This document shows positions 38,215 through 60,605 of a stretch of DNA of 64,000 nucleotides, piece after piece. Both the position numbers and the translations under genes were made by a program. Source of the DNA: Escherichia phage vB_EcoM_E9.1; the sequence record PP886230; one strand, 5' to 3'. The notes beneath the pieces are model-generated. The model saw nothing but the letters and a program-made list of their open reading frames with translations, was not told the DNA's origin and searched no databases. Each line of letters begins with the position of its first letter. Within the stretch, counting starts at the first letter, position 1.

Positions 38215-38556
38215 ATGAACTTAAGTTCAACAATTCAGTACTTGAGCAGTAACTTCGAGAAAATTATTTCTCGCGGTGGGATGATTGTACACCCAGAAAC
38301 AGAGGAAATGTACATCATTGGATTTGATAAAAATTCTTATGATCAAGTACTTGTAATTTCCAAGTTAGAAAGTTATAATGAAGTTGTTCAGTTTTGCTGT
38401 ACCGAATTTGGTATCTATATTAAAGACGCTGAAACTAATACAATTTCGCATTATTTTTACCACACACTGATGGGTACTAAAGACTTCGGCTTGAAGTTCG
38501 ATGATTTAGTACAATGTCACTATATGTTTAAAACCTTCCCAGCTAGTGGGCATTAA
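38215..38556 (+). CDS. hypothetical protein
   Basis: Track ORF; RBS AAGGAG. Confidence 0.5.
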   Translation: MNLSSTIQYLSSNFEKIISRGGMIVHPETEEMYIIGFDKNSYDQVLVISKLESYNEVVQFCCTEFGIYIKDAETNTISHYFYHTLMGTKDFGLKFDDLVQCHYMFKTFPASGH

Positions 38557-38569
38557 GGAGTATATCAAT

Positions 38570-39358
38570 ATGAGCAACATTTTCTTCAAAACTATTTCTT
38601 TCAAAAAAGCATCTTACTCCTACGCCTACGTTGATGGTAAAGTGCTTAATATTGTACTGGATGGTGTTGACGTACCAGTTGAATTTAAAACACATGAAGA
38701 AGCAGTTGAAGGTGCTAAAGAATTGAATTCAATTCTTAATGGTGAAGTAAGTCAAAAACAACATGTAAAATCTGATTTAGATGTACTTTTGGAAAAAATC
38801 AAAACTGGTGAAGTATTAGAAATTTTAGACAACTGTAATGAAAAACTTCGTAATGTAGTTAATAATGTTCGTGACCAGATTCAAGAAAAAGCACTAGAGC
38901 AAGCATTCAAACATGTATCCAAGAATGCTGAATCTCGTATTGACGGTATGGTTAAAAATCTTGATGATGTACTATCTCATCTCTTTACTAAAGAATACGA
39001 ACAAGAAGTTGAAGAAGAACCAGTAAAAGAAACTAAAAAAGAAAAACGTAGCTTTGGCTCAGGTGATGATGTGTTTGGTTTTACGAATGTCCGAACAAGT
39101 GCAGATGAACCAAAAGAAATTAGTGAGATGCTCATTGGTGACATGACAACTAAGCAGCTTCGTAATGAAATTGACAAGTTTGTAACTAGTTGTATCAAAT
39201 CAGAACGTGCACAAAGTATGTTTAAAAGCATTAGTGAGAACTTTGGTCCAGAAGCAACTGAGCAGGCACTAACTGCATTTAAAGAATTGATTTATAATGT
39301 AGCCATTAGCAATCCAGATAAAACACTTGAAGAAGTTCTACGTGACAATTTCAAATAA
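38570..39358 (+). CDS. hypothetical protein
   Basis: Track ORF 38546..39358 (GTG); start moved to ATG 38570 behind AAGGAG. Confidence 0.55.
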   Translation: MSNIFFKTISFKKASYSYAYVDGKVLNIVLDGVDVPVEFKTHEEAVEGAKELNSILNGEVSQKQHVKSDLDVLLEKIKTGEVLEILDNCNEKLRNVVNNVRDQIQEKALEQAFKHVSKNAESRIDGMVKNLDDVLSHLFTKEYEQEVEEEPVKETKKEKRSFGSGDDVFGFTNVRTSADEPKEISEMLIGDMTTKQLRNEIDKFVTSCIKSERAQSMFKSISENFGPEATEQALTAFKELIYNVAISNPDKTLEEVLRDNFK

Positions 39359-39370
39359 TTAGATAAAATT

Positions 39371-39398
39371 AAAGCCACTACAATGTAGTGGCTTTTTT
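39371..39398. terminator. bidirectional terminator between convergent genes
   Basis: AAAGCCACTAC-loop-GTAGTGGCTTT hairpin with A-run on one side and T-run on the other. Confidence 0.65.
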
Positions 39399-39400
39399 TA

Positions 39401-40555
39401 TTATGCGTTGTAACCAACTATTACGACTGAGCAGTCAAGCGGTTCTACTACTTTAAGAATTACATTATCATCTTCATCCACTTGTATTTCACTATGAACT
39501 ACATGATTGTCTGAAGAATATAATTGAACTTGTGGTAGTGCTTTACCATGTTCAGTTACTGGAACTGAGATAGAGTACATAGAGTCTTCACCGAGAACCC
39601 ACTCACTTAAAGTATATTCTTTATGGAAAGGAGTAGTATGCAGTGTTTTTCCGATTATACTCAAAGAAACAGGTAAATTATCAGTTTGATACACAGTAAT
39701 ATTACCTTCTGCGTCTACAGAAAGATCTACACCAACTTGATATAAGTCACCACTGTATGCTTGAAGTGCTAAGTACTGTCCACGATCATGAACATCAAAT
39801 GGAACAACCGCAGAAAATACACCTTCCGAAACAGGTTCAAATTGGGATAGAAGAACTGATGTAACAAAATCAATATCCTCACCACTTTCAAGAACATCAA
39901 ATTCCACCACTTTAGTGTTATAATATGGAGAAGTGAGCGTAGCAGTACCTTTCCCTGATTGTGTGATAACATCAACTGGAATTGTAAATGCATCATTAAC
40001 AAATTGGGTAGTAAAGTATTCTGTCCCGTCTGGTAATACGATTGTTATTACCATACCGTTAGTATCAATTTCTGAACCAGTGTTGAATAATTTACCACTA
40101 ATTGAGTCATTACCAACAAATACTGGTGAAATGAGAATATTATCTATATCACGATCTATAATACCACATTCAGGTGTATACATATGATACAAGGTTTGTG
40201 AACTACCTAAAATTGTTTTATGTAGCATAAATTTATATACAAATCCAGTATCAGTTTCTTGTGGCTCTTCAGAATATCCACGAACAAAGAAACAATTTTT
40301 ATTAATTTCACTTAATAGTTGGTCATTAGTTTTATTGTAATTTAATAGATAACCTTTATTATCTTTAGTTGTTATTTGTACTTTACGATATATTATATTA
40401 GTTCTTGGATCAACTAAATCATATAATCTATGGCTTCTTTGGCGATAGATTCTAATATTTTTTAGTCTAGTTCCATCGTTGAGGATTGCACCATCAACAA
40501 CATAACCACATTCACCAAACTTATAGCGTCCAGCCGCAGCAATTGACCTTGACAT
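39401..40555 (-). CDS. hypothetical protein (384 aa), the only substantial minus-strand gene
   Basis: Track ORF on minus strand; GGAGG 5 nt upstream of its ATG, TATAAT-like -10 further upstream on minus strand; no recognisable motif. Confidence 0.6.
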   Translation of the reverse strand: MSRSIAAAGRYKFGECGYVVDGAILNDGTRLKNIRIYRQRSHRLYDLVDPRTNIIYRKVQITTKDNKGYLLNYNKTNDQLLSEINKNCFFVRGYSEEPQETDTGFVYKFMLHKTILGSSQTLYHMYTPECGIIDRDIDNILISPVFVGNDSISGKLFNTGSEIDTNGMVITIVLPDGTEYFTTQFVNDAFTIPVDVITQSGKGTATLTSPYYNTKVVEFDVLESGEDIDFVTSVLLSQFEPVSEGVFSAVVPFDVHDRGQYLALQAYSGDLYQVGVDLSVDAEGNITVYQTDNLPVSLSIIGKTLHTTPFHKEYTLSEWVLGEDSMYSISVPVTEHGKALPQVQLYSSDNHVVHSEIQVDEDDNVILKVVEPLDCSVVIVGYNA

Positions 40556-40615
40556 TTATCCCTCCATTGGTATAATTATTATAACGTATTTATTATGCAT
40601 ATCCAAAAAATGAGC

Positions 40616-40644
40616 TTGACTGGTGTATGATTTGGTGTTATCAT
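40616..40644 (+). promoter_or_regulatory. sigma70-like promoter
   Basis: TTGACT-N17-TATCAT with TG just upstream; divergent from the minus-strand gene. Confidence 0.45.
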
Positions 40645-40671
40645 GTAGTGAATGAATAATGAGGTGTTTTT

Positions 40672-41256
40672 ATGAATGTTATTGATAATAGATTAGTACT
40701 GAAAAATGGAAAAATGACTGTTAAGTTATATAAAGATGAAGCTGATTCTTTTATGGCAAAAGCGATTGAAAAATCAGAACGATATAAACTTTTGGCTCCA
40801 GCAAGTAAATCGCCATATGGTTTTAATCATGCACATAGTCATTTTGTTGGTATGGTGTGTGAGCACGCATCTTTAGTACTTTTTAATGAAATTGAAAACA
40901 ATACTGGTATTAAACTTAATATCGATCCAGCATTCCAAAATGAAGCACGTGACGGTGAATGTGATATTAAGGTAAACAACCTTCGTATTGAAGTAAAAGG
41001 TATCAAGTATAAATCATGGACTGACTTTGGACCATGTGTTAGTACTCGACAGTTAAAAAATATCCAGAAAAAAGCTGACGTAATACTATGGGTATTGTAT
41101 AATGAGAAAAAACAAGAGTTCACGTTTGAGGGATTCAACTATGTAAAAGATATTAGTTCTATCCCAGTTATCCTCACTGGTGTACCAGGGCGACCAATGA
41201 TTGAAAATCACCCAGTACTCGGTATTATGAAACCACTACAGGAGTTACCATTGTGA
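40672..41256 (+). CDS. hypothetical protein
   Basis: Track ORF; RBS TGAGGTG. Confidence 0.55.
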   Translation: MNVIDNRLVLKNGKMTVKLYKDEADSFMAKAIEKSERYKLLAPASKSPYGFNHAHSHFVGMVCEHASLVLFNEIENNTGIKLNIDPAFQNEARDGECDIKVNNLRIEVKGIKYKSWTDFGPCVSTRQLKNIQKKADVILWVLYNEKKQEFTFEGFNYVKDISSIPVILTGVPGRPMIENHPVLGIMKPLQELPL

Positions 41257-41480
41257 TTACTGCAACTGTATATCAAGATATCAATGAAGAATTTCATTCT
41301 AAAATTGCGTTCTTATCATTTCCTGTACTCCCAGTAGTTGGGTCAACGTTGAATCTTACCATTTGTGGGTTTGAGAAATATTATAAAGTTCTAGATATTG
41401 AGTACTGTGCTGATGTATATTCATGTAATAGTGAAATTGCAATTCCAGTATCAATCGATATTATTGTAAAAGAGGTTTGA
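41253..41480 (+). CDS. hypothetical protein
   Basis: Track ORF; GTGA overlap. Confidence 0.45.
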   Translation: MITATVYQDINEEFHSKIAFLSFPVLPVVGSTLNLTICGFEKYYKVLDIEYCADVYSCNSEIAIPVSIDIIVKEV

Positions 41481-57558: not shown

Positions 57559-57636
57559 GTTTTATGTCATTCGATATAAATGACAACGGAACTATAAATA
57601 TTATAGTAAAATTTATCTCTTATAGGAGTTATAAAA

Positions 57637-58020
57637 ATGGTTGATAAATGGAATAAGAAAGATCCATCACATGATGTTGATATTTCTGGTCTAGACAATG
57701 CACATAAGCACAAGTATCTAGATTCACTAGGTCTTCTAAAACCAGACCAAAGTCTTGCACATGATCGTCCATCCCGTGAAAAAGCATTTAGCCTAGAATC
57801 ACTAGGTCATGAGCTTAATCGTGTGTTTGAGGATCACCCAATCTATGTACGTGATATTATCGAGAAACTTAAAGTAACTCCTAAAGAGCACTTTAAAGCA
57901 ACTGTACACTCTGCATTCCGTGCATTACATGAATCTCTAAAGAAAACTCACAATCTTCGTAAAATTCATGATGAAATCGTGAATGCAATCGAAAGTGAAA
58001 AACATAAGTTCAAGAAGTAA
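57637..58020 (+). CDS. hypothetical protein (shares SLGLL motif with 58266..59543)
   Basis: Track ORF; RBS TAGGAG; ...HKHKYLDSLGLLKPDQ... Confidence 0.5.
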   Translation: MVDKWNKKDPSHDVDISGLDNAHKHKYLDSLGLLKPDQSLAHDRPSREKAFSLESLGHELNRVFEDHPIYVRDIIEKLKVTPKEHFKATVHSAFRALHESLKKTHNLRKIHDEIVNAIESEKHKFKK

Positions 58021-58025
58021 TAAAA

Positions 58026-58060
58026 AGGGGTTGACTAAGGTCAGCCCTTTGTTGTATCAT
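58026..58060 (+). terminator. terminator-promoter cassette, copy 2 of 5 (variant loop TAAG)
   Basis: GGGTTGAC-TAAG-GTCAGCCC hairpin + TTTGTTG; TTGACT in the stem, TATCAT downstream. Confidence 0.5.
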
Positions 58061-58209: not shown

Positions 58210-58242
58210 AAGGTTGACTTCGGTCAGCCTTTTCTTTATACT
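58210..58242 (+). terminator. terminator-promoter cassette, copy 3 of 5
   Basis: AAGGTTGAC-TTCG-GTCAGCCTT hairpin + TTTCTTT; TTGACT-N17-TATACT. Confidence 0.55.
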
Positions 58243-58265
58243 ATAAATATAGACATAGAGAAAAA

Positions 58266-59543
58266 ATGAAATCTATGGAGAGAAATCAAATGCCAAGTAA
58301 TTTTACTGATAAAAATGGTGGTAACATGGCTGGTCACTCTGATAAATGGAGTGAACGCAACCGCCGTCCAAATAGTTATCAAGCAGGTCAAGGTTCACGT
58401 GGATCACGTAACCAAGGAACTGGTCTAGCTGGTAAAGCAAACGCAGAAGCAGGTGAAGTTAAGAGTACTGAGAACATGACTGAGCTAGAAAAGCTACGTT
58501 ATGTTAATTCATTGGGACTTCTTAATGCTACACAAAAACAACGCCTAGCTGATATGGAACGTGAAGAAAAAGAAAAATCTGCTCCTGCTAAAGAAGAACC
58601 AAAACAAGAAGCACCAAAGGCGGTTAACCCTGTCAAAGAACTGTCGGATAAGTTAGGTAAGATTTTTGCTAATAAACCACAACTTATCCAAGGTATTGTG
58701 AAAGAATTGCAATCTGTACCTAAAGAAGAATTAAAAGTCAAAGCACAAGCTGTGCTTGATGCAATGAGTGGAAATACCAGTACTGAACCAACTGAAGTAT
58801 TCAGTACTATAATGCGTGCACTTGAAGGTACGCAACAAGGTGATGTGCCTGCACAAGAGGAAGTAAGTCTTGAAAGCGTACTTAAAACATTTGATAGTAT
58901 TGGTAAAGAAGACCGTGCTAATGCTCAACAAGTTAAGAATGTACTAGCTAAGTTAGAAAACCGTCTGGAAGGTAAAGACGATAAGATTAAATTAGTATCT
59001 GATGCAGTTAACGATGCACTTAAATCTTATGTACAAGGTGAAAAGAGTCGTTTTGTAACTGCAATGGATGCTGCATTCAATACTATGAAAAAGTATGAAG
59101 CTGATCATGGTGAGAAGGTTACACGAGATGGTTATCTGATGCGTGATGATGAAGAAGGTGCAGTAGAACAGAACGATGTTCATTCAGACGAAGAAATTGA
59201 TGACATGGAAGCTGAACTGTCACAAGACCGCCAAATGACTGAAAAATCCCATAACGAACTACAGAAATTAATGCAATGGGTTGCAGATGTTGGTGAAAAA
59301 GCTGGTGCTGATAAGAAGAGTATAAACCGAAATCTTAGTTGGATTAAAGATAAAGTTGGTAACAACGCTCGTAAACTACAAAAAGCGTGGACTGATGTAG
59401 TGAATGGTGCTGTTGACATTGATGTTGAATCCGGTGAGGCATATGATTATGCATTGACTACACTTGATGACTCTTTCCGTGATTACGAAAATGGAAATGT
59501 AACTCCTTGGGAAAAGGACATCATGAGCAAATACGGTAAATGA
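58266..59543 (+). CDS. hypothetical protein (425 aa), Gly/Ser-rich N-terminus, acidic coiled-coil rest
   Basis: Track ORF; ...LEKLRYVNSLGLLNATQ... paralogous to 57637 motif. Confidence 0.55.
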   Translation: MKSMERNQMPSNFTDKNGGNMAGHSDKWSERNRRPNSYQAGQGSRGSRNQGTGLAGKANAEAGEVKSTENMTELEKLRYVNSLGLLNATQKQRLADMEREEKEKSAPAKEEPKQEAPKAVNPVKELSDKLGKIFANKPQLIQGIVKELQSVPKEELKVKAQAVLDAMSGNTSTEPTEVFSTIMRALEGTQQGDVPAQEEVSLESVLKTFDSIGKEDRANAQQVKNVLAKLENRLEGKDDKIKLVSDAVNDALKSYVQGEKSRFVTAMDAAFNTMKKYEADHGEKVTRDGYLMRDDEEGAVEQNDVHSDEEIDDMEAELSQDRQMTEKSHNELQKLMQWVADVGEKAGADKKSINRNLSWIKDKVGNNARKLQKAWTDVVNGAVDIDVESGEAYDYALTTLDDSFRDYENGNVTPWEKDIMSKYGK

Positions 59544-59551
59544 TAAAACAA

Positions 59552-59584
59552 AAGGTTGACTTCGGTCAGCCTTTTTTTGTAAAT
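59552..59584 (+). terminator. terminator-promoter cassette, copy 4 of 5
   Basis: AAGGTTGAC-TTCG-GTCAGCCTT hairpin + TTTTTTT overlapping stop; TTGACT in stem. Confidence 0.6.
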
Positions 59585-59614
59585 ACAAAAGAGGAATTAA
59601 GAAGAGGGATTACA

Positions 59615-59866
59615 ATGAAAAAATATATTATATTTGGAATTGTATTATTTTCCAGTACTGCTTATGGTGCAGATTATCATTGCTCCGTAGCAAGGCAGGA
59701 TTTCAGAAATGGGGAGTTCTATACTACCTCATACACAAAAGGAATAATACACGACACCGACAGAACTATTGGATTTAATGCGTTTGACAACAAAGATTCA
59801 TATACTTCAGGTATACTATCTGAGCGTAAGACTGATGTAATGGGAATAGAAAAAGAGTTCCGGTGA
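59615..59866 (+). CDS. secreted protein (signal peptide)
   Basis: Internal ATG of track ORF 59540..59866 behind AGAGGGA; MKKYIIFGIVLFSSTAYGA. Confidence 0.5.
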   Translation: MKKYIIFGIVLFSSTAYGADYHCSVARQDFRNGEFYTTSYTKGIIHDTDRTIGFNAFDNKDSYTSGILSERKTDVMGIEKEFR

Positions 59867-59876
59867 TTCAGTAGCA

Positions 59877-60176
59877 ATGTGCAATGGCATTGAAAGTACT
59901 AAAACAATTTATTATAATAATGAACGTAACTATCGTTTTCATAATTTAACCACAAATAAAAGTTTACTATTTTACAATTGTAAAGAAGTAATACTCCCAT
60001 CAGACAATAGCTGTACTCCAACTAATCAACCCCCAGCACAATGTAATACTCCCTCTGAACCTGATAAAAATAAAAAAGACAAAAAACCTTTAAAAGATAA
60101 AAAGAAAGATAAAAAACCTAATCCGTTTAAAAATAATAAACAAGCACAACCCGATATGACGTGTAAAATAAAATAA
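59877..60176 (+). CDS. hypothetical protein with Lys-rich low-complexity tail
   Basis: Track ORF; ...DKNKKDKKPLKDKKKDKKPNPF... Confidence 0.35.
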   Translation: MCNGIESTKTIYYNNERNYRFHNLTTNKSLLFYNCKEVILPSDNSCTPTNQPPAQCNTPSEPDKNKKDKKPLKDKKKDKKPNPFKNNKQAQPDMTCKIK

Positions 60177-60185
60177 GGATATATA

Positions 60186-60605
60186 ATGAAAAAGATTTTT
60201 TTAAGTATTATTTTAGTACTTTTTAGTTTTAATGTATATGCAGCAGATGCTAAACAGGTTGCAAATACAGTAAAAGATGTTATAGTAGATAATGCTCCTA
60301 CATTAGAGGAAATTGGGGTAAAAACTTGTGATATAGTAATATATAATTTAGTTAATGATGAACGAGTTATGTTGAATACGTATGAACAAGTAGTCCCATT
60401 GGTTGAATCTGGTGATGCTTTTAGCTTTACATATAAAGTTAAATTAACAGGAGGGGTTGAAGTTAATCTTGACATTGATACCGCTTCAGTACTAAAAGAT
60501 AAACTAGGATATGTGTTCAATCGTATTCGTGAAGAAGGTCATCTTAAGTATGTTTATGAAAGTAAAATACTAAAACGTGCAATAGTTATAGAAAACTGTA
60601 AATGA
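60186..60605 (+). CDS. secreted protein (signal peptide)
   Basis: N-terminal MKKIFLSIILVLFSFNVYAADA. Confidence 0.5.
   Translation: MKKIFLSIILVLFSFNVYAADAKQVANTVKDVIVDNAPTLEEIGVKTCDIVIYNLVNDERVMLNTYEQVVPLVESGDAFSFTYKVKLTGGVEVNLDIDTASVLKDKLGYVFNRIREEGHLKYVYESKILKRAIVIENCK

Follow-up and report, generated by a model that had tools for sequence, protein, structure and literature searches.

A lone minus-strand virion protein gene with a late-type promoter motif in an early-type region of a 121Q-type jumbo coliphage

The minus-strand gene and its neighbours

The analysed window is a stretch of 64,000 nucleotides from a jumbo coliphage of the 121Q/PBECO4 type (Asteriusvirus). It contains one substantial gene on the minus strand, which ends with a stop codon at 39401-39403; this gene and the features around it are listed in Table 1. 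The isolation of the gene, pointed out in an earlier note on this DNA, is confirmed by ORF counts: 16 ORFs of at least 200 aa lie on the plus strand versus one on the minus strand, and for ORFs of at least 100 aa the numbers are 89 and eight. The second-largest minus-strand ORF, 60026..60520 (164 aa), overlaps plus-strand genes and is without annotation in 121Q. The number of plus-strand genes, earlier put at about 145, is approximately right; a crude count of non-overlapping plus-strand ORFs of at least 50 aa gives 132.

The gene product corresponds to gp155 of 121Q, gp077 of phAPEC6 and JP4_CDS0131, and a 100% identical protein is present in 17 phage records. It is already catalogued as a particle protein, with matches to PHROG 10468 (E 7.6e-184, residues 1-383) and PHROG 33171 (E 1.4e-10, residues 3-126), and the 121Q annotation of gp155 reads 'virion structural protein, Ig-domain'. 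Its presence in virions was established in two independent mass spectrometry studies. In the published phAPEC6 data, gp077 was detected in purified virions by 10 peptides covering 37.8% of the protein. We searched the published mass spectrometry supplement for JP4 virions by sequence and found an identical protein there, represented by five peptides and 10 PSMs.

The convergent plus-strand neighbour also encodes an annotated virion protein, detected by four peptides in phAPEC6 virions and not found in the JP4 virion data; no TAAATA occurs within 160 nt upstream of this gene. The two convergent genes are separated by a hairpin at 39371-39395, located 12 nt past the stop of the plus-strand gene and 5 nt past that of the minus-strand gene. 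It was predicted as a terminator on either strand, which bears out the bidirectional terminator proposed earlier, with folding energies of -18.2 kcal/mol on the plus strand (z -5.0) and -16.6 kcal/mol on the minus strand (z -6.5). The minus-strand U-tract is interrupted (TTTAATTTTAT).

On the other side of the gene, both the 384-aa ORF with its GGAGG-type ribosome-binding site and the divergent promoter region are as previously described. The GGAG-type site is kept in most orthologs, with GGGGG in Munch and GAGGGG in A4. Two sigma70-type plus-strand promoters, P1 and P2, face the divergent gene. The -35 box of P1 coincides with the codons ATG-TCA-AGG of the minus-strand gene, read backwards, and its -10 box is kept only in 121Q, UE-S1, BF17 and Turkey5. 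The -35 box of P2, which reads GTCAAG on the strand of the minus-strand gene, is recognisable in most of 13 orthologous spacers; Munch and Hallingskeid have GTCAAT instead, XbC2 has TTCAAG, and no such box is apparent in XaC1.

Table 1. Genes, regulatory elements and protein domains at the locus of the minus-strand gene
Feature	Coordinates	Strand	Remarks
Coding sequence of the minus-strand gene	39401..40555	-	384 aa, ATG start, 42.88 kDa, pI 4.6 (computed); virion structural protein
Convergent neighbour	38570..39358	+	Annotated virion protein (121Q gp154, phAPEC6 gp078c)
Divergent neighbour	40672..41256	+	121Q gp156, without assigned function; syntenic in all relatives fetched
Two-sided intrinsic terminator	39371..39399	both	11-bp stem (5 G-C pairs), 3-nt loop, A-run before, T-run after
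Ribosome-binding site GGAGGG	40560..40565	-	4 nt before ATG
Late-promoter-like motif AATAAATAC	40586..40594	-	T4 late type, TATAAATA; TAAATA core ends 31 nt before ATG
Weak sigma70-like site TGGATA-16-TATAAT	40578..40605	-	10/12 match; includes the -10 of the earlier note
Sigma70 promoter P1, TTGACA-16-TG-TATAAT	40549..40576	+	Perfect, 12/12 and extended TG; faces the 40672 gene
Early sigma70 promoter P2, TTGACT-17-TG-TATCAT	40616..40644	+	Conserved; faces the 40672 gene
N-terminal module, codons 1-135	40151..40555	-	Conserved, basic, pI 9.3; proposed virion anchor
Ig-like beta-sandwich domain 1, codons 136-225	39881..40150	-	pI 4.05; AF2, Foldseek
Ig-like domain 2, codons 226-304	39644..39880	-	pI 4.05; AF2, Foldseek
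Ig-like domain 3, codons 305-384	39404..39643	-	pI 4.47; least conserved domain; AF2

Conservation and composition of the gene

Full-length orthologs of the gene were found in 60 jumbo-phage records. In 12 of the 12 relatives fetched the ortholog occupies the same syntenic slot and has the same lone inverted orientation. The window and these relatives form a set of 13 genomes, with host genera ranging from Escherichia to Xanthomonas and protein identity down to 31%. All 13 retain the gene, its lone opposite-strand orientation, the hairpin terminator after its stop codon and an upstream TAAATA motif. The stem sequences of the equivalent hairpins differ while the pairing is kept, and a terminator is annotated at this position in G17, UE-S1 and Munch. 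By this genome comparison, the gene and its layout are shown to be ancestral to a whole clade of jumbo phages.

The earlier note had considered a different origin of the gene. A foreign or recently acquired gene, such as a moron-type insertion, would explain both the odd strand and the motif density, and it would agree with a lone opposite-strand gene having its own promoter and terminator, with a single AGTACT, and with a GC3 of 0.171, the lowest among the 41 window genes of at least 150 aa (mean 0.245 ± 0.041). However, the GC content (0.336 versus 0.333 ± 0.028 in other genes), the tetranucleotide distance (56th percentile) and the synonymous codon likelihood (24th percentile) are all ordinary. 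The low GC3, which does set the gene apart from its neighbours, is common to core virion genes, and the value is nearer to the virion-gene class (0.204 ± 0.023) than to the early genes of the window (0.245 ± 0.041). The AGTACT shortage is real as a count, with one copy in the gene (at 39772) where the window averages 2.6 per kb, but it is not a significant depletion: of 55 tiles cut to the length of the gene, 8 contain at most one copy, as do 12.7% of sliding windows. The idea that a gene poor in AGTACT is foreign was rejected on these statistics, since the count is inside the normal spread. A literature search on the AGTACT excess returned only an unrelated paper on giant-virus methylation.

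A horizontally acquired island or moron would be expected to have an atypical composition and to occur patchily among relatives; neither trait was found, and orthologs occupy the same slot and orientation down to 31% identity. We therefore regard a foreign origin as refuted and leave it only a very small probability: because the gene and its lone inverted layout are kept in 13 of 13 genomes and its composition is native, this is an ordinary conserved phage gene. Homologs of just this kind had been named in the earlier note as grounds for giving up its reading. What stands out by its strand is an ordinary late gene of a phage already known, rather than an island or a defence or anti-defence gene.

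Late-type promoter motif and orientation of the gene

The window has the character of an early region: 32 sigma70 promoters close to consensus lie on its plus strand and one on its minus strand. The spacer upstream of the minus-strand gene contains a motif of the T4 late type; it reads AATAAATA, one mismatch from TATAAATA, and its ATAAATAC is the sole copy on either strand of the 64-kb window. The heptamer ATAAATA is depleted 3.7-fold in the window (12 observed versus 44 ± 8 expected). All 13 orthologous spacers have TAAATA on the sense strand, ending 24-35 nt before the ATG, and none has it on the antisense strand; the chance rate is about 4% per spacer. These data supply a comparative check of the late-promoter motif of the clade across 13 genomes.

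The TAAATA-type motif is associated with virion genes elsewhere in these phages. In phAPEC6 it precedes virion genes at distances of 25-66 nt, among them those for the major capsid protein, the scaffold and the baseplate; the genes concerned include gp225c (major capsid protein), gp226c, gp227c, gp228c, gp231c, gp238, gp244 and gp245. The two other late virion genes of the window, homologs of gp199 and gp201, have the motif 36 and 16 nt before their ORF starts. By annotation only, phAPEC6 gp237c is a gp55-like 'sigma factor for late transcription'. Late promoters with the TAAATA-type motif have been proposed for two relatives, CBB and GAP32, and CBB_244 was described as gp55-like (PMC5259590).

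The putative unit resembles the gp55-dependent late units of T4 in several respects. It has an AT-rich octamer of the -10 type without a -35 box, 24-35 nt before the start codon, a gp55-like sigma factor is encoded, and the motif precedes structural genes. In contrast to T4, the first base of the motif is A and not T, and most late genes are on the same strand as the early genes. According to the paper on CBB, that phage yielded no homologs of the T4 co-factors gp33 and gp45 (PMC5259590).

The earlier note had assigned the gene its own -10 box, and a minus-strand TATAAT is indeed present at 40583..40578. This box is unlikely to be the key element, since it is the neighbouring AATAAATAC that is conserved. 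An alternative in which the gene is driven mainly by TGGATA-16-TATAAT (40605..40578), with early or constitutive expression and an incidental late motif, draws on the 10/12 consensus match and on UE-S1, which has the better version TTGATA-16-TATAAT. In T4, moreover, some genes have both early and late promoters. Yet the minus-strand TATAAT is confined to the 121Q, UE-S1, BF17, Turkey5 and CBB lineages, and neither it nor the -35 box is conserved past close relatives, whereas TAAATA is present in 13 of 13. Such sites occur on the minus strand at about the background rate (10 in total versus 75 on the plus strand), and the product is a virion protein. This alternative seems improbable to us, though some early expression could take place, since the weak sigma70-like site overlaps the late motif.

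The proposal of a different regulatory class is thus supported by the early-type surroundings, the late motif in 13 of 13 genomes and the presence of the product in virions. Taken together, the motifs support a late gene inside an early region, and the gene is very probably a native, late-class virion protein gene. A literature search for transcriptome or transcription-start data on the clade found none in the Sharanji and JP4 papers and otherwise only unrelated jumbo phages; we infer the late timing and the transcription start from motifs.

We propose the following model of expression. Early in infection, rightward sigma70 transcription would stop at the hairpin and restart at the promoters at 40549 and 40616, and owing to this stop and restart around the gene no sense mRNA of it would be made. 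Late in infection, the host polymerase with the phage gp55-like sigma factor would start at about 40580 on the minus strand and produce a monocistronic transcript of about 1.2 kb that ends at the two-sided hairpin. The gene would then form a self-contained late transcription unit, reversed within a long early block that is read by the host sigma70 RNA polymerase.

The reverse orientation could itself be adaptive, by insulating a protein that is harmful if made early from strong early-promoter read-through. It is kept in 13 of 13 genomes, and inversion is also seen in other family members, namely in the 121Q group (second locus), EJP2 and three metagenomic contigs. On the other hand, single-gene inversions are rare, and inheritance alone may explain the conservation. 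For the late virion genes at 57637 and 58266, which are co-oriented with the early genes, an upstream terminator suffices, and the majority strand carries the major capsid protein gene together with most of the other structural genes. An adaptive role is therefore rather unlikely in our opinion: the inversion may help to exclude early read-through or may simply be inherited, and it is not needed for late control, because two late virion genes of the window are co-oriented with early genes.

Protein architecture and place on the particle

The observation that the product has no recognisable motif holds for Pfam, where the whole protein gave nothing above threshold and a weak sub-threshold match to Ig_NUP210 at residues 318-358, but not for structure prediction, where Ig-like domains are seen. 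The AF2 model contains three beta-sandwich domains (pLDDT mostly >90), arranged as a linear Ig-like string; over the first of them, block means are 85-96. Foldseek matched the model to tandem Ig arrays (E ~1e-5), and its search against PDB yielded only generic arrays of this kind. PDB sequence searches with profiles of the full-length protein and of the N-terminal module (N-module) gave nothing below E 0.04.

The N-module, predicted to be mostly beta with an SH3/Tudor-like core, defines a family fused to a variable number of Ig-like domains, from none to many. Alone it matches PHROG 33171 with E 1e-11. The family members in PHROG 10468 and PHROG 33171 include gp155 and gp471 of 121Q, gp077 and gp347 of phAPEC6, gp483 of CBB, GAP32_475 and g482c of fHe-Yen9-04; CBB_483 was looked for in the main text of the paper on CBB (PMC5259590) without success. 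No paralog of the minus-strand gene product was found within the window or in the structural module of phAPEC6; a paralog, gp347 in phAPEC6, was identified elsewhere in the genome through a relative. This protein of 125 aa is a bare N-module, detected by mass spectrometry in phAPEC6 (75.2% coverage) and JP4 (12 PSMs). The nearest TATAAATA is about 190 nt upstream of gp347, so the cassette design is not uniform.

The design of the protein resembles that of T4 Hoc or T5 pb10, and the searches described here revealed no homology to either. In pb10, the T5 capsid decoration protein, an N-terminal attachment domain is followed by a C-terminal Ig-like domain, the same order as proposed here. Similarity to Hoc extends to size (384 versus 376 aa), to the combination of one conserved globular attachment domain with three Ig-like domains of which the Ig part is acidic, and to the status of a late virion protein. 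The number of Ig-like domains varies among relatives in both cases, from none to many in the N-module family and from 1 to 10 among Hoc relatives (PMC10385173). In contrast to Hoc, the proposed anchor is N-terminal rather than C-terminal, and the predicted fold of the N-module differs from the alpha/beta binding domain of Hoc (PMC10385173). Homology to Hoc was rejected, as hhalign probabilities were about 0.1% with the whole protein as well as with the N-module alone, and no PDB sequence match was obtained.

The N-module probably anchors the product on the virion, because a paralog consisting of the bare module is an abundant virion protein. In the mechanism that we propose, the basic N-module of about 125 aa would fasten the protein to the particle, and the three acidic, faster-evolving Ig-like domains would project outward as a short fibre. 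The fibre would bind weakly to glycans on the cell surface or in the environment, a role that has also been proposed for T4 Hoc. We give this surface-fibre mechanism an even chance. For the overall explanation, in which a native late virion gene encodes an anchor-plus-Ig surface fibre, we estimate a probability of roughly 0.65.

The late virion protein could instead be placed on the tail, as a sheath decoration or at the base of the 'hairy' tail fibres, and not on the capsid. The phAPEC6 tail has decoration proteins and fibre rings without an assigned gene, but on its capsid, too, a protein at the hexamer centres and fibres are unassigned. A crude mass spectrometry estimate of 60-150 copies per virion comes near the number of sheath subunits (150, in 25 hexameric rings), though it fits partial occupancy of the 270 capsid hexamers equally well, and the estimate for the paralog gp347, 220-560 copies, is nearer to 270. 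The Ig-like parts of many relatives match PHROGs named 'major tail protein', and a BFVD match from CBB bears that name, but these names reflect common Big_2 domains and not the N-module. A search for a high-resolution Asteriusvirus structure found none. None of these points is decisive, and a tail location is possible but the less probable placement.

We tentatively speculate, while holding it doubtful as a whole, that the N-module of about 125 aa could be an uncharacterised virion-lattice anchor unrelated to Hoc and pb10, that Rak2-like phages could use two conserved loci of opposite-strand late genes, and that gp347 and gp077 might explain two features seen by cryo-EM of 121Q and phAPEC6, the unassigned density at hexamer centres and the fibres on the capsid. 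The two phAPEC6 proteins are testable candidates for 121Q-type surface features left without a protein in the 10-Å cryo-EM map. If the anchor reading is true, the N-module could find use as a display handle on very large capsids.

The family is modular, combining an anchor with Ig-like domains, and its second locus is hypervariable; it may aid the understanding of giant-phage surface adherence or serve as a display scaffold. The orthologs of the gene described here always have three Ig-like domains. At the second conserved locus the paralogs, inverted too, range from 125 aa without Ig-like domains (gp347) to 820 aa with many in the loci examined. This locus adjoins dCMP-deaminase and ClpP genes, and outside the 121Q group NAMPT and NadR-like genes.

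Identity and virion association of the minus-strand gene

The focal gene encodes a virion protein, is ancestral to its clade and is accompanied by a late-type motif and a two-sided terminator. About 20 Asteriusvirus jumbo coliphages, among them 121Q, PBECO4, G17, phAPEC6, JP4 and CRJP21, match the region 38500-41300 at 99-100% identity; the gene itself is 121Q gp155 (annotated as 'virion structural protein, Ig-domain'), phAPEC6 gp077 and JP4_CDS0131. The earlier note described a minus-strand gene with a GGAGG ribosome-binding site, the only substantial one on that strand. Both points hold: the 384-aa ORF is real and has an ATG start with GGAGGG at 4 nt, and no other minus-strand ORF of at least 200 aa occurs within the window. 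The second-largest one (60026..60520, 164 aa) overlaps plus-strand genes and has no 121Q annotation.

The protein falls in PHROGs 10468 and 33171, a family that bears the name 'virion structural protein' and is uncharacterised. In CsCl-purified phAPEC6 virions gp077 was detected by 10 unique peptides with 37.8% coverage (PMC7247149, Table 1), and its mass of 42.88 kDa is the computed mass of the focal protein. An identical protein was found in JP4 virions (5 unique peptides, 10 PSMs; PMC12648861, supplement 2). The gene is real but ordinary: it had been annotated as a virion gene before, and mass spectrometry confirms this. JP4 label-free abundances, calibrated on the major capsid protein (1620 copies, 6.55e8) and the portal (12 copies, 1.9e6), give a very rough 60-150 copies per virion, which fits capsid or tail alike. 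Several densities of the 10-Å phAPEC6 map are unassigned: a fibre-bearing protein at each hexamer centre, a network on the outer capsid, and decorations and fibre rings of the tail. The focal protein is a candidate for such surface densities, a new if modest assignment.

Coordinates of the focal gene, its flanking signals and other late units of the window
Feature	Position	Strand	Remark
Convergent neighbour (121Q gp154, phAPEC6 gp078c)	38570-39358	+	annotated virion protein
Hairpin terminator	39371-39395	both	scored as intrinsic terminator each way
Focal CDS	39401..40555	-	384 aa, ATG start
Ribosome-binding site	4 nt 5' of ATG	-	GGAGGG
Sigma70 promoter	40549-40576	+	perfect consensus, extended -10; -35 overlaps focal start codon
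Late-type motif ATAAATAC	40593..40586	-	just 5' of focal gene; sole copy on either strand of the window
Late unit, gp199 homolog	57593-58020	+
Motif TATAAATA	57593-57600	+	precedes gp199 homolog (127 aa, ATG 57637)
Late unit, gp201 homolog	58212-59866	+
Motif TATAAATA	58242-58249	+	precedes gp201 homolog
Terminator hairpins of these late units	58022-58050; 58212-58238		each just 5' of late motif

A conserved N-terminal module with variable Ig-like extensions

In the AlphaFold2 model (14 homologs, pLDDT 80), three confidently predicted beta-sandwich domains come after an N-terminal region. Foldseek matched generic tandem Ig-like arrays, such as Bap, filamin, antigen I/II and S-layer domains, and among viral models it matched proteins of other jumbo phages. 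Homology searches and structure prediction, advised by the earlier note for a product in which it recognised no motif, thus yielded a virion family and Ig-like domains; the profile comparison with T4 Hoc and the PDB sequence searches were negative, and T5 pb10 was absent from the matches of every search. Membership in the Hoc family was rejected, homology to the Hoc anchor being absent. By analogy, the protein would resemble T4 Hoc and T5 pb10 in design, as an anchor with Ig-like display.

Identity to the focal protein declines from the N- to the C-terminus (55%, 41%, 41%, 36% and 28% over five segments in the six most distant homologs). The pI is 9.3 for the N-terminal module (N-module), which is basic, and 4.0-4.5 for the acidic Ig-like domains. 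Every one of 14 aligned orthologs has cysteines C16 and C130, which could form a disulfide or a metal site in the N-module. With residues 1-135 as query, an exhaustive profile search retrieved 87 representative proteins, 74 of them at E <1e-10. The module occupies the extreme N-terminus in 87/87, and total lengths range from 102 to 1859 aa. Among the C-terminal parts of a sample of 30, Big_2 was found in 15, alongside Big-like, Invasin_D3, Big_1 and similar Ig-like domains.

Genomes of the 121Q type each carry a second family member (121Q gp471, slurp01_00371, phAPEC6 gp347). The gp347 paralog (125 aa, 14.108 kDa) consists of the N-module only, with 33% identity to focal residues 3-124 (E 1e-15). 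Its coverage of 75.2% is the highest of the 62 phAPEC6 virion proteins, and its JP4 counterpart (12 PSMs) is about 3.7 times as abundant as the focal protein. The presence of this bare module in virions implies that the N-module is sufficient for incorporation into the particle, hence our term anchor. We propose that the focal gene is expressed late, as a monocistronic mRNA, that its product would attach to the particle through the N-module, and that the three Ig-like domains would be displayed outward for weak adhesion. Such adhesion has been proposed for Hoc and other Ig-bearing phage proteins (PMC10385173), and via Ig domains by Fraser et al. 2006, as cited in PMC5259590.

Like the focal gene, the gp347 paralog stands alone on the opposite strand, and a terminator made of an A-run, hairpin and T-run comes after it. 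In EJP2 and three metagenomic contigs, opposite-strand members of 218, 224, 653 and 820 aa occupy one slot between NAMPT and NadR-like genes and dCMP-deaminase and ClpP genes. Since the 121Q-group paralog adjoins deaminase-like and ClpP genes, it probably occupies this slot too. A copy of ATAAATAC precedes the 653-aa member by about 40 nt, and the stop codon of that member is directly followed by a terminator. N-module proteins of this second locus range from 125 to 820 aa, often beside a further Big_2 protein, and the locus appears to be a hotspot at which Ig-like domains are gained and lost. The definition of this anchor family, with two conserved inverted loci, is a modest novelty.

A late-type motif in an early-type region

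The window is an early-type region in which strong early promoters are unusually dense. Sigma70 sites at 11 or more of 12 consensus positions number 32 on the plus strand and one on the minus strand, and all 11 perfect TTGACA-N16-18-TATAAT sites are on the plus strand. Depletion is 3.7-fold for the T4-late-like heptamer ATAAATA (12 copies on both strands vs 44 +/- 8 expected) and 2.3-fold for TAAATAC, as would be expected if stray late promoters were selected against in an early region.

A sense TAAATA ends 24-35 nt 5' of the ATG in 13/13 orthologous spacers (the window and 12 relatives), the rest of the spacer having diverged. Antisense TAAATA occurs in 0/13, and the chance by shuffling is about 4% per spacer. 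In the structural module of phAPEC6, [T/A/C]ATAAATA is located 25-66 nt upstream of virion genes, including those for the major capsid protein, scaffold, gp227c, gp228c, gp231c, baseplate wedge and gp245, and the same locus encodes an annotated gp55-like 'sigma factor for late transcription'. ATAAATA was proposed as the late promoter of CBB and GAP32 (PMC5259590). The position and conservation of the motif, its counterparts at structural genes and the low GC3 (see below) support a late promoter of gp55 type for the focal gene. The different regulatory class suspected in the earlier note is therefore upheld, as a prediction from sequence. The TATAAT noticed there, 3 nt 3' of the late motif, is conserved in close relatives and CBB only. 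The regulatory layout would be a standard example of a T4-type late unit; a literature search found no transcript data for this phage clade.

On the plus strand, TATAAATA has only two sites in the window, 36 and 16 nt before ORFs homologous to the annotated virion proteins 121Q gp199 and gp201; the gp199 homolog is present in the JP4 virion table. The gp201 homolog comprises two ORFs (58266..59543 and 59540..59866) vs one 495-aa gene in 121Q, which may reflect a frameshift or indel. The convergent neighbour is represented by 4 peptides in phAPEC6 virions (gp078c); its homolog was not detected in JP4 virions, and no late motif occurs within 160 nt 5' of the gene.

The two-sided terminator between the convergent genes was confirmed by scores on both strands and by folding against shuffled sequence (z -5.0 and -6.5). 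In 13/13 genomes a hairpin lies no more than about 12 nt behind the stop codon, with an A-run before and a T-run after. Its stem sequences vary by lineage with pairing kept, which argues for a terminator functional in both directions. The divergent promoter region is likewise borne out, two sigma70-type plus-strand promoters facing the next gene. The perfect-consensus promoter reads focal codons ATG TCA AGG on the opposite strand as its -35, has its -10 within the focal 5' leader, and is conserved only in the 121Q, UE-S1, BF17 and Turkey5 lineages. As this promoter and the presumed late start site overlap, polymerase bound at either could block the other.

Composition, ancestry and orientation

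The scarcity of AGTACT in the focal gene (1 copy vs 166 in the window, 2.6 per kb) does not mark it as odd: such low counts (one copy or none) occur in 8 of 55 tiles of its length and in 12.7% of sliding windows. In the composition comparison suggested by the earlier note, GC, tetranucleotide profile and synonymous codon likelihood were ordinary. Only GC3 was out of line (0.171 vs 0.245 +/- 0.041), nearer to virion genes (0.204 +/- 0.023) than to the early genes of the window.

Window-wide, the AGTACT palindrome is 7.7 times above composition expectation, CAGTAC and GTACTG are the top two over-represented hexamers, and CGTACG and GGTACC are absent. Its proportionate spread over all three codon positions and non-coding DNA points to a DNA-level signal, for which a literature search found no explanation. 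The excess is 5- to 13-fold in CBB, GAP32, fHe-Yen9-04, XaC1, XbC2, Hallingskeid, the phAPEC6 structural region and one metagenomic relative, and about 3-fold in Munch; a 7-kb T4 segment has 0 copies.

Full-length orthologs were found in 60 phage records, at identities down to 31%, from phages of Escherichia, Salmonella, Erwinia, Yersinia, Pectobacterium, Cronobacter, Serratia, Klebsiella and Xanthomonas. In 12/12 relatives chosen to cover this range, the ortholog is a single opposite-strand gene within a co-directional block, beside the same divergent neighbour of about 192 aa. This shared layout is ancestral to the clade and, with the orthologs, excludes the different origin that the earlier note had considered.

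The strand and flanking signals of the focal gene are accounted for by the proposed late-gene regulation. The inverted orientation itself is possibly not meaningful: the gp199- and gp201-type late genes run with the early genes behind a terminator hairpin and late motif, the majority strand carries most structural genes of this phage, and the conserved orientation may be inheritance alone. Other family members are inverted at the second locus, alone or with one or two more opposite-strand genes beside them, so the inversion may yet have a functional reason.

The ortholog of Salmonella phage SD-6_S16 (OR699182.1 176021-177114) is broken into two annotated ORFs (P0009, 242 aa; tblastn match in 2 pieces), probably by a frameshift or assembly error in that record. 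In CBB, GAP32, fHe-Yen9-04 and XbC2, a tRNA/SAM-dependent methyltransferase gene lies between the focal ortholog and the gp154-like gene, and in the first three it is followed by tRNA genes.
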